Of a DNA stretch of 64,000 nt, positions 33,102 to 33,442 are shown piece by piece. The stretch lies in assembly GCA_016711225.1 (NCBI GenBank), contig JADJTK010000016.1:32810-96809 (forward strand), read 5' to 3'. Made by a program: the position numbers and the translations under genes. Source of the DNA: Opitutaceae bacterium. GTDB lineage: Bacteria > Verrucomicrobiota > Verrucomicrobiia > Opitutales > Opitutaceae. The notes below the pieces were generated by a model. That model saw only the letters and a list, made by a program, of their open reading frames with translations, was not told the DNA's origin and did not search any database. Position 1 is the stretch's first letter. Every line of letters starts with the position of its first letter.

Positions 33102-33442
33102 CGCCGACGCTTCAAGTGAGCCACGGCGTGCCGTGGAAATAGATTGGAAGGCGGACGATATATCGCCGTTGGCTCTGCTGGCTGGTGTGCGCCCGACATG
33201 ACCGTGAACCAAGAAGTGAAAGTCTTCGATGTGCGAATCCAAAACTAAAGCATTAGACGAAAGCAACTGCGACGCCGCGAGGCGCCGTGGGAAGGAAGCT
33301 GGAGCCAAAACGGCGAGCCCACCATCAGCCGGCGGCGCCTGCGCGCCGCCGGCTGATGGAGACCGGAAACCGCCCGGTACGGACCCGTACGCCGGGTGGT
33401 GTGGGGGCCGGGAGCTAACTACTCCCGGCTACCCGATTCGCC
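33102..33442 (-). other. attC site interrupted by mini-intron B
   Basis: CGCCGAC ... GATTGGAAGGCGGAC ... CTGCTGGCTGGT | intron | TCGCC. Confidence 0.65.
33187..33437 (+). mobile_element. ORF-less 251-nt group II intron derivative (mini-intron B)
   Basis: Same architecture and length as copy A. The DVI stem reads GCCGGGAG/CTCCCGGC rather than GCCGGCGG/CCGCCGGC, a compensatory change. Confidence 0.75.

Follow-up and report, generated by a model that had tools for sequence, protein, structure and literature searches.

A 251-nt group IIC-attC intron derivative in a verrucomicrobial integron is probably an internal-deletion remnant that carries a domain VI allele of its intron family

Group IIC-attC introns such as S.ma.I2, E.c.I7, Kl.pn.I1 and Ge.s.I1 (Leon, Quiroga, Centron, Roy) are known to target TTGT/T in the R'' box of integron attC sites, on the bottom strand and antisense to the cassettes (PMC7923331; PMC3001079; a slash within a motif marks an insertion point or a junction throughout), and both outward promoters and truncated copies have been described for them (PMC3001079; PMC7923331). 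Here we analysed a 64,000-nt stretch of an Opitutaceae metagenome-assembled genome (MAG; contig JADJTK010000016.1 of assembly GCA_016711225.1, positions 32,810 to 96,809), called the window below. A chromosomal integron array occupies 28.5-43 kb of the window, and one of its attC sites is interrupted by a 251-nt mini-intron, copy B, which has three end-complete companions (copies A, C and D) in the same array. A sequence-only reading had recognised B as the second copy of one internally deleted group II intron, located in the attC of another cassette and retaining domains V and VI (DV and DVI), and our study confirmed this point. It had also argued that the preservation of helices between diverged copies reflects selection on the RNA structure of the mini-element; this is not supported, since the DVI pairs concerned are family-wide alleles, 3' ends have been exchanged between copies and the ribozyme is missing. 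Instead, B is probably a non-autonomous, catalytically dead internal-deletion remnant that was copied and reshuffled by DNA recombination among the introns of the array.

Copy B derives from a group IIC-attC intron and has exact boundaries. With the described members of this class it shares the location at GT/T of R'' on the attC bottom strand, the antisense orientation, the 5' GUGYG and 3' ...GGCUACCCGAU ends and the presence of several copies per array, and the intron-encoded protein (IEP) of copy D is 46.6% identical to those of class 1 integron introns. It differs from them in lacking the open reading frame (ORF), exon-binding site 1 (EBS1), most of domain I (DI), DII, DIII and DIVa, in residing in a verrucomicrobial chromosomal integron, and in having TGGT instead of TTGT as intron-binding site 1 (IBS1). 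The trans-mobilised ORF-less introns of bacteria (Thermosynechococcus elongatus; survey by Simon et al., 2008) resemble B in that they lack an IEP, are found beside related IEP-encoding copies and are multi-copy, but they keep a complete ribozyme in which only DIV is shortened, as is also the case for the relatives L004, L048 and L056, whereas in B only 136 nt of DI, the tail of DIV, DV and DVI are left. Intron remnants such as the RmInt1-related FRE652 of Sinorhizobium (PMC4181065) and the 5'-truncated UHB.F1 (PMC7923331) are comparable to B as inactive leftovers of retrohomed introns that persist. Two fragments in the window, F1 and F2, are 5'-truncated in this classic way; in contrast, B has both exact ends, a single internal deletion and two copies at different sites. 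The group III and mini-group II introns of Euglena chloroplasts (PMC4424553) are likewise drastically shortened with their terminal domains kept. This is a resemblance only: the Euglena introns lie within genes and are spliced with the help of trans factors, and those of group III have no DV, whereas B is antisense to genes and nothing suggests that it is spliced. We found no description of multi-copy, end-complete, ribozyme-truncated IIC-attC derivatives in the literature, which is weak evidence of novelty as literature coverage was incomplete.

The 5' end of B (GTGCG at 33187) and its 3' end (...CCCGAT at 33437) agree with the group II termini (5' GUGYG, 3' AY). In both the minimum free energy (MFE) and centroid structures, the bulged A of DVI is position 33431, 7 nt from the 3' end; B has the triad and 2-nt bulge expected of DV together with a DVI bulged A within 7-8 nt of the 3' end. 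The Rfam model RF02001 scored 25.9 bits on B at 33271-33342, below its gathering score of 32 and with 122 model positions squeezed to 24 nt; at permissive thresholds, Rfam gave on B only a truncated DI match and noise, and no DV or DVI family match. The insertion, antisense to the cassettes, reads CTGGT/intron/TCGCC, i.e. it lies on the bottom strand, in R'' and opposite to cassette transcription, as in other IIC-attC introns. All four end-complete copies in the window are preceded by CTGGT and followed by T(C/G)G(C/G)C, which corresponds to an R'' box split at GT/T on the bottom strand. An empty attC that is 91% identical to that of B, from a locus of an uncultured Verrucomicrobia MAG (L060), reads ...CTGTCTGGT/TCGCCC. 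Since this empty site runs uninterrupted through CTGGT/TCGCC, the insertion of B was precise and created no target duplication. When folded, the L060 site has an R box of 7 bp (GGCGAAC/GTTCGCC); in the attC that hosts B, the R' box (33100-33107) is degenerate (GCGCCGAC vs GGCGAAC at 2241-2234 of L060), so that the R box is now unpaired. The degenerate R' box would fit a relaxation of constraint after inactivation of the attC by B. Whole-element folding gave about equal z-scores for the plus strand of B (-5.2) and for its minus strand (-4.7). As the minus strand folds as well, fold stability does not point to a plus-strand RNA, and we dropped it as proof of one.

Alignment with full-length relatives shows that the mini-introns (minis) have one internal deletion, which joins positions 1-136 (...GGCGAGCCCAC) to the last ~115 nt, starting with CAT. 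The matching borders in copy D are CCCAC/GAAC (35340-35345) and CCTAC/CATTATCC (36995-37000). The deleted span, equivalent to D 35345-36999, holds the candidate EBS1 loop, the remaining part of DI, DII, DIII, DIVa, the 5' strand of the stem that closes DIV, and the reverse transcriptase (RT) ORF. We take the loop GCACCACA of copy D as a candidate EBS1 from its place in the RF02001 alignment and its complementarity to the 5' exon. In place of a full DI, DII and DIII, B thus retains 136 nt of DI with no counterpart of the EBS1 loop; of an RT/maturase, only the last ~12 codons, out of frame; and neither the full ribozyme nor the IEP binding site found in trans-mobilised ORF-less introns, the ribozyme and DIVa being deleted. 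From what is established on group II biochemistry, an RNA without EBS1, most of DI, DII, DIII and DIVa cannot fold a catalytic core or pair with a target, and the primary binding site for the IEP is gone. Given the absence of EBS1, most of DI, DII, DIII and DIVa, B cannot act as a ribozyme.

The perfect hairpin noticed in the sequence-only reading, with a stem of 17 bp, is real, but it is the native one of the ORF end rather than a replacement: it is collinear, column for column, with the final ~12 codons and the stop of the IEP ORF (...AYHYPGGAPRVVR and stop codon), at the 3' end of DIV. This ORF-end hairpin is imperfect in every full-length relative tested. Its predicted energy is -14 to -23 kcal/mol in native full-length relatives, -36 in A, where a single G-G mismatch interrupts the stem and the loop has 5 nt, and -40.4 kcal/mol (z = -8.2) in B. 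The mini hairpin is much nearer to those of L032, L046, L067 and L094 than to that of D, and D was ruled out as the parent of A and B because its ORF tail (CATTATCCGCAAAGGCGCCGCACGCGTCGATGAATGATGG) differs strongly from it. The deletion junction and architecture shared by A and B hold, but their equal length, which had been taken as part of the likeness, is coincidental: two indels cancel out, A having an additional C in its hairpin loop and B an additional A at 33367. A metagenome scan for the mini junction GAGCCCACCATCAGCCGGCGG returned 4 matches, all by chance in unrelated GC-rich coding DNA, and no further 251-type copies.

A perfect palindrome lies exactly at the deletion junction in both mini types. 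The second type carries the hairpin GGTTTTGCG-NNN-CGCAAAACC, which occurs only in intron derivatives, with variable loops, and is common to deletion derivatives in four MAGs. Its 5' junctions are of four different kinds (DI ~97, DI ~165, RT residue ~241 and RT residue ~307), three of which coincide with native GAGGCC-like motifs, while L002 reads GTCGCC. This hairpin marks an old or widely transferred defective lineage, and copy C, which contains it, is an independent deletion derivative of the D lineage. Junction palindromes of this kind would fit fold-back synthesis or template switching, by an RT or a DNA polymerase, followed by nested microhomology deletions; selection for the hairpin is not required.

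The DVI arms of B read GCCGGGAG/CTCCCGGC and those of A, C, D and F1 read GCCGGCGG/CCGCCGGC (5' arm/3' arm). The two compensated pairs reported earlier for B vs A, C and D are thus confirmed: two adjacent pairs are altered on both sides (C-G to G-C and G-C to A-U). With ~5% divergence and 1/3 for the right base, the chance of both partners changing independently is roughly 3e-4. The paired change, being far from the expectation for independent mutation, needs an explanation, and selection acting on the mini is just one of several possibilities. When species-representative genomes were scanned for exact matches to the DV sequence, 77 loci were returned, mostly in Verrucomicrobiota and Acidobacteriota MAGs; 46 copies from these other genomes have the same DVI architecture, and 25 distinct DV-DVI sequences were used for the covariation analysis (the invariance of DV in the 46 copies is uninformative, DV being fixed by the search pattern). 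A shuffle-based test on related copies, where a covariation test had been proposed, did reveal covariation at B's two pairs, but it is family-wide and not specific to the minis. Among the 25 sequences, the only covarying DV-DVI pairs are the two that changed in B: columns 43-55 (AU 11, CG 5, GC 4, UA 2, GU 1, other 2) and columns 44-54 (GC 18, AU 5, other 2). Both-side changes amount to 16 cells vs 4.4 +/- 1.7 in shuffles (0/500 reach 16), and all of them fall in these two column pairs.

Six compensated DVI alleles are present in the family (AGG/CCT, CGG/CCG, TGG/CCA, GAG/CTC, TAG/CTA and GGG/CCC). The stem and loop of B occur identically in L077 (GCCGGGAG-CTAACTA-CTCCCGGC), and the stem also in L048, L050, L064 and L068. 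L077 belongs to a different sub-clade, with TCGGAACC rather than GACCGGAAC before DV, and the distribution of DVI alleles over the clades is mosaic. In L032 (twice), L033 and L021, half-converted alleles (TGG/CCT, CGG/CCA, GAG/CCT) are mismatched at a covarying pair, and such a mismatch seems to be tolerated by apparently active introns. Taken from the alignment, these data indicate that the DVI helix is under selection in the intron family, as expected, and that B holds one circulating allele. As the same pairs are polymorphic throughout the family, the compensated pairs of B are no proof of selection on the mini itself.

Comparison of the copies points to exchange between them. The first 142 nt of B are 95-96% identical to C and D, and the last 84 nt 92%. 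The junction and hairpin place copy A with B, and seven 3' sites (the two T's of GAGACTGGAATCGCC, the absence of the extra A and four DVI sites) place it with C and D; sites 59-60 in the 5' part link A to D and B to C. The motif GAGACTGGAATCGCC is a D-lineage marker that is also present in L096, a 94.7% identical relative of D from another sample, and at both of its variable sites B and F1 keep the family consensus C. Because A has these D-lineage markers downstream of a non-D hairpin, the 3' ends of minis have been exchanged. Copy A is accordingly chimeric, with the core of the mini and a 3' end of the D type, and the 3' end of B most likely goes back to the parent of the mini itself. Copies A and B are 94% identical end to end and their host attCs 72%; as the minis are far more alike than the attCs, it is the mini itself that was copied and not an attC-plus-mini module. 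Duplication of such a module was ruled out, the attCs of A and B being no closer than other attC pairs.

A comparable picture emerges from the Opitutaceae MAG nzgw611, in which three 316-nt minis occupy three unrelated attCs (L035 and, twice, L057). L035 and L057b differ at 4/316 sites, all in the outer arms, and three of the four differences form a DVI 5'-arm/loop/3'-arm block (TGG-CTAACTA-CCA vs AGG-CTAATTA-CCT), both versions being family haplotypes. Since the loop base is irrelevant to pairing, selection for pairing does not account for this switch, whereas block exchange does, and DVI alleles appear from these sequences to move between copies as blocks. Differences confined to the outer arms are the trace expected where a mini has overwritten a resident intron through a double crossover or gene conversion. 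The non-compensated DV/DVI changes that had been named as evidence against structural selection exist in part: in the mini L057a, both the upper helix of DV and the DVI stem carry uncompensated changes, to which the hairpin mismatch of A can be added. In well-supported helices, A and B differ by two G-U and two compensated pairs vs one break. Many relatives are 5'-truncated or internally deleted.

The history that we consider probable would start with a full-length intron that retrohomed, in antisense to the cassettes, into the bottom strand of an attC, at the GT/T position of R''. The mini would then have been created by a single deletion flanked by two short repeats, CCCAC and CCTAC, where the native ORF-closing hairpin has its base. 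The hairpin of the mini may have been made perfect by fold-back synthesis or template switching at the time of the deletion, or by later quasi-palindrome correction. From the mosaic sites, we infer that the mini reached a second attC, and had its ends reshuffled, via homologous recombination or gene conversion with the introns of the array, i.e. by recombination into attCs that already held an intron; this mode of spread is favoured because the ribozyme is missing and the copies are mosaic. The GAG/CTC allele of B would most likely have been acquired by descent from a full-length parent or by block exchange, selection on the DVI helix having presumably acted in active introns and not in the mini. 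The remnant splits R'' from its attC and gives the upstream cassette ORF its stop, which would be side effects rather than selected functions.

Several points weigh against this history. Exact intron ends in unrelated attCs (two 251-nt minis here, three 316-nt minis elsewhere) are what retrohoming would give, and gene conversion requires each mini site to have held an intron earlier. No full-length parent was found with both the hairpin of B (GGCTGATGG tail) and a GAG/CTAACTA DVI, and the allele shared by B and L077 could be due to convergence and is no proof of import. The mostly pair-keeping helix differences between A and B would fit a weak structural constraint, and the sample of minis is tiny, with 6 copies of two types.

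The exact ends at canonical GT/T sites could also be explained if the minis were retroelements similar to miniature inverted-repeat transposable elements or short interspersed nuclear elements (SINEs), mobilised in trans by a full-length IEP such as that of D, maybe with ribozyme parts from other introns, and with their folds under selection. An intact IEP does co-reside in D, DV is intact in both A and B, the hairpin of B is perfect and most A/B changes in firm helices keep the pairing. Moreover, some relatives of 650-700 nt have no ORF but a complete ribozyme, and at least one is multi-copy: the L004-type intron has at least three copies (L004, L018 and L039) in one Verrucomicrobiota MAG, a copy number that suggests trans-mobilisation in this intron family. 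Mobilisation of the minis themselves is nevertheless unlikely. Their EBS1 loop, most of DI, DII, DIII and the IEP-binding region of DIVa are deleted, their DVI difference is a family allele that is not mini-specific, and differences between copies are mosaic or limited to the outer arms. In addition, uncompensated breaks occur in L057a and A, the metagenome junction scan gave no more 251-type copies, and an antisense IIC-attC intron has been reported to be untranscribed in its host (PMC3001079). We are equally doubtful of the broader proposal that verrucomicrobial integrons host ribozyme-incomplete IIC-attC minis of 251-336 nt (5' end, junction hairpin, DV and DVI) that are RNA-copied into new attCs with the RT, and perhaps DI-DIII, provided in trans, and whose helices are selected. 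Retromobile minis would be the first known case of bacterial group II derivatives that move although their own ribozyme core is missing; if they were RNA-copied in trans, they would represent a bacterial counterpart of SINE-like elements or of Euglena-type mini-introns.

The DVI change of B could, in principle, have arisen in place by intrastrand template switching (quasi-palindrome correction), with the hairpin perfected likewise and no selection on RNA. The DVI stem and the hairpin are both inverted repeats in the DNA, the two DVI changes are adjacent, so that one event per arm is enough, and the hairpin is imperfect in all full-length relatives and perfect in B. The equal folding of the two strands, with no tie to a plus-strand RNA, and the half-converted DVI alleles of L021, L032 and L033 go in the same direction. 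We still find an origin in place rather improbable. B keeps the family consensus at three nearby unpaired or wobble sites at which it differs from A, C and D, which argues for a different ancestry of its whole 3' segment, and the L035/L057b switch includes a loop base that arm-to-arm templating cannot change. Very improbable, finally, is the idea that the remnant is kept for its service to the integron or the cassettes, whether by inactivating the attC and locking cassettes, by termination or stabilisation through an antisense hairpin, by a stop codon or by an outward promoter: R'' is split by the insertion with the R box of B unpaired, the ORFs upstream of A, B and C stop at a TAG in the antisense DVI loop, the minus strand has a terminator-like stem followed by a T-rich tail at 33287-33270, and outward promoters in DI, as well as blocking of transcription by the intron, have been documented in S.ma.I2 and its relatives (PMC3001079), but within B the minus strand showed no sigma-70-like promoter (verrucomicrobial promoters may differ), these effects follow automatically from any intron insertion, and the copies are decaying.

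The case of B calls for caution in reading compensated differences between copies of a mobile RNA, which may be alleles inherited from or swapped with active relatives and are no proof of selection on a dead copy. Our study also uncovered a graded series of forms, from full-length introns to ORF-less introns, minis and 5'-truncated fragments, with two mini lineages present in several attCs each, and signs in the sequences that intron copies recombine with one another within cassette arrays. According to a summary in PMC7923331, recombination of this kind is a step required by the Leon-Roy model of cassette formation.

Table 1. Coordinates of copy B, of its surroundings and of related features. 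Two-dot and unprefixed coordinates refer to the window; L numbers precede coordinates in other loci. HMM, hidden Markov model.
Feature	Location	Strand	Details
Copy B, mini-intron	33187..33437	+	251 nt, GTGCG...CCCGAT; intron positions 1-136 joined to last ~115 nt
5' exon, bulk of attC hosting B (bottom strand)	33104..33186	+	attC HMM E = 8e-20; ends ...GGCTGGT at GT of R''
3' exon start TCGCC, remainder of R'' box (GT/TCGCC)	33438..33442	+	
DI remnant of B	33187..33322	+	first 136 nt; GCGA-loop stem at 33271-33286; EBS1 and other DI parts gone
Internal hairpin of B	33322..33359	+	17-bp perfect stem, 4-nt loop; deletion junction CCCAC/CAT at base
DV of B	33369..33400	+	CGC triad with G-U, 2-nt bulge, short upper helix, loop GACC; MFE and centroid
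DVI of B	33404..33433	+	arms GCCGGGAG 33407-33414 and CTCCCGGC 33422-33429, loop CTAACTA; MFE and centroid
Cassette ORF upstream of B (cassette sense)	33415..34074	-	no own stop before attC; ends at TAG in antisense DVI loop
Copy A	29439..29689	+	251 nt; B's deletion junction and hairpin, D-lineage 3' end
Copy C	34159..34494	+	336 nt; junction hairpin GGTTTTGCG-TGC-CGCAAAACC at 34321-34341
Copy D	35209..37116	+	1908 nt, full-length group IIC-attC intron; IEP ORF 35692-37032
Candidate EBS1 loop GCACCACA of copy D	35386-35393	+	ACCA complementary to 5'-exon IBS1 TGGT
F1	30734..30831	+	5'-truncated 3' fragment of a third intron lineage
F2	28440..28578	+	degenerate intron 3' fragment; ~64-nt insertion splitting DV loop
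Integron integrase gene	ORF 43201..44703; gene ~43.7-44.7 kb	+	TIGR02249, 361 bits (cut-off 265)
GGTTTTGCG-NNN-CGCAAAACC hairpin sites	34321-34341; L002 3988-4008; L024 1751-1771; L035 4014-4034; L057 757-777, 2757-2777		
ORF-less, apparently ribozyme-complete relatives	L004 2754-3440; L048 868-1573; L056 ~2312-2960; L065 999-60 (-)		649-940 nt
Hybrid DVI alleles	L032 2368-2450, 4699-4781; L033 ~6411-6493; L021 ~2696-2772		both L032 copies full-length
DV 5'-strand insertions	L024 ~1605-1646; L040 ~662-699; L043 ~7770-7807		

The integron itself is identified by an IntI-type tyrosine recombinase, recognised by TIGR02249, and by 12 attC sites of ~85-90 nt each, detected in the window with an HMM trained on its own sites. 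The integrase ORF as listed exceeds the gene, the domain match covering residues 165-470 (Pfam Phage_integrase and SAM_4). This gene is on the plus strand and divergent from the array, the cassette ORFs being on the minus strand, and the attC sites follow the pattern RYYYAAC...CTGGT/TAGGC on the plus (bottom) strand. Four of the about 12 attC sites hold group IIC-attC introns or derivatives, and the two fragments come in addition. The minus-strand cassette ORFs whose stop is the TAG of the antisense DVI loop include, besides the one upstream of B, those upstream of A (29667-30176) and C (34476-35087); with the introns removed in silico, the three would extend 18-26 codons into the attC. No promoter-like site was found on the plus strand upstream of B (32700-33187). 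Pfam searches of the cassette ORFs neighbouring B were uninformative, and an exact-protein look-up for other cassette states returned no record of the 84-aa cassette protein, cytochrome bd subunit II, P0001 or P0121.

Copy D matches Rfam RF02001 (124 bits) and RF01998 (40 bits), and its protein matches Pfam RVT_1 and GIIM and TIGR04416 (360 bits) and is 100% identical to MBK8477092.1 (Opitutaceae bacterium MAG). The closest plasmid relatives of this IEP (46.6% identity, 98% coverage) are encoded by ltrA genes on pVIM_Pse-KSS14, where the introns lie antisense in a class 1 integron (intI1-aac(6')-Ib-blaVIM-2-fosE-intron-aadA1-intron) and share the copy D-type 3' end GGCTACCCGAT/T. Contigs with the IEP P0008 (80% identical) have phage-type integrase and TrwC neighbours, outside arrays, and contain no minis.

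The array has further insertions. Two ORFs for IS110-family transposases lie within it, at 38850-39734 and 40813-42240 (both DEDD_Tnp_IS110, the second also Transposase_20); the first appears truncated, and they may belong to attC-targeting IS1111-like elements. A GC-rich insert of ~920 nt (31333-32255) begins directly after the CTGGT/ of the attC at 31245-31332, i.e. at the intron insertion point of that site. Its plus-strand ORFs have no Pfam match, and parts of it are 71-82% identical to L035. The insert in the DV loop of F2 consists of two ~25-nt direct repeats (..CCGTAGCCTTGGGCGAAGGCGGG.. and ..CCATAGCCTTATGCGAAGGCGGG..). Short repeats of the CACAGAGGGCAC[G/T]GAGG type are found just upstream of F1 and F2 (28345-28400, 30385-30405 and 30590-30640) and likewise upstream of a truncated fragment in L060 (~5700-5800); they may represent another small repeat element that interrupted introns. 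Elsewhere in the family, a 17-23-nt insertion (e.g. CACTTTCGGATCGAGGA) in the 5' strand of DV, between CCGCC and CGGTACGG, is present at three loci of two MAGs. At L093 (~2410-2483), the 3' end of a full-length intron abuts the 5' end of a second one (...CCCGAT/CTGCGCCCGACATATG...), the two being in tandem at one attC.

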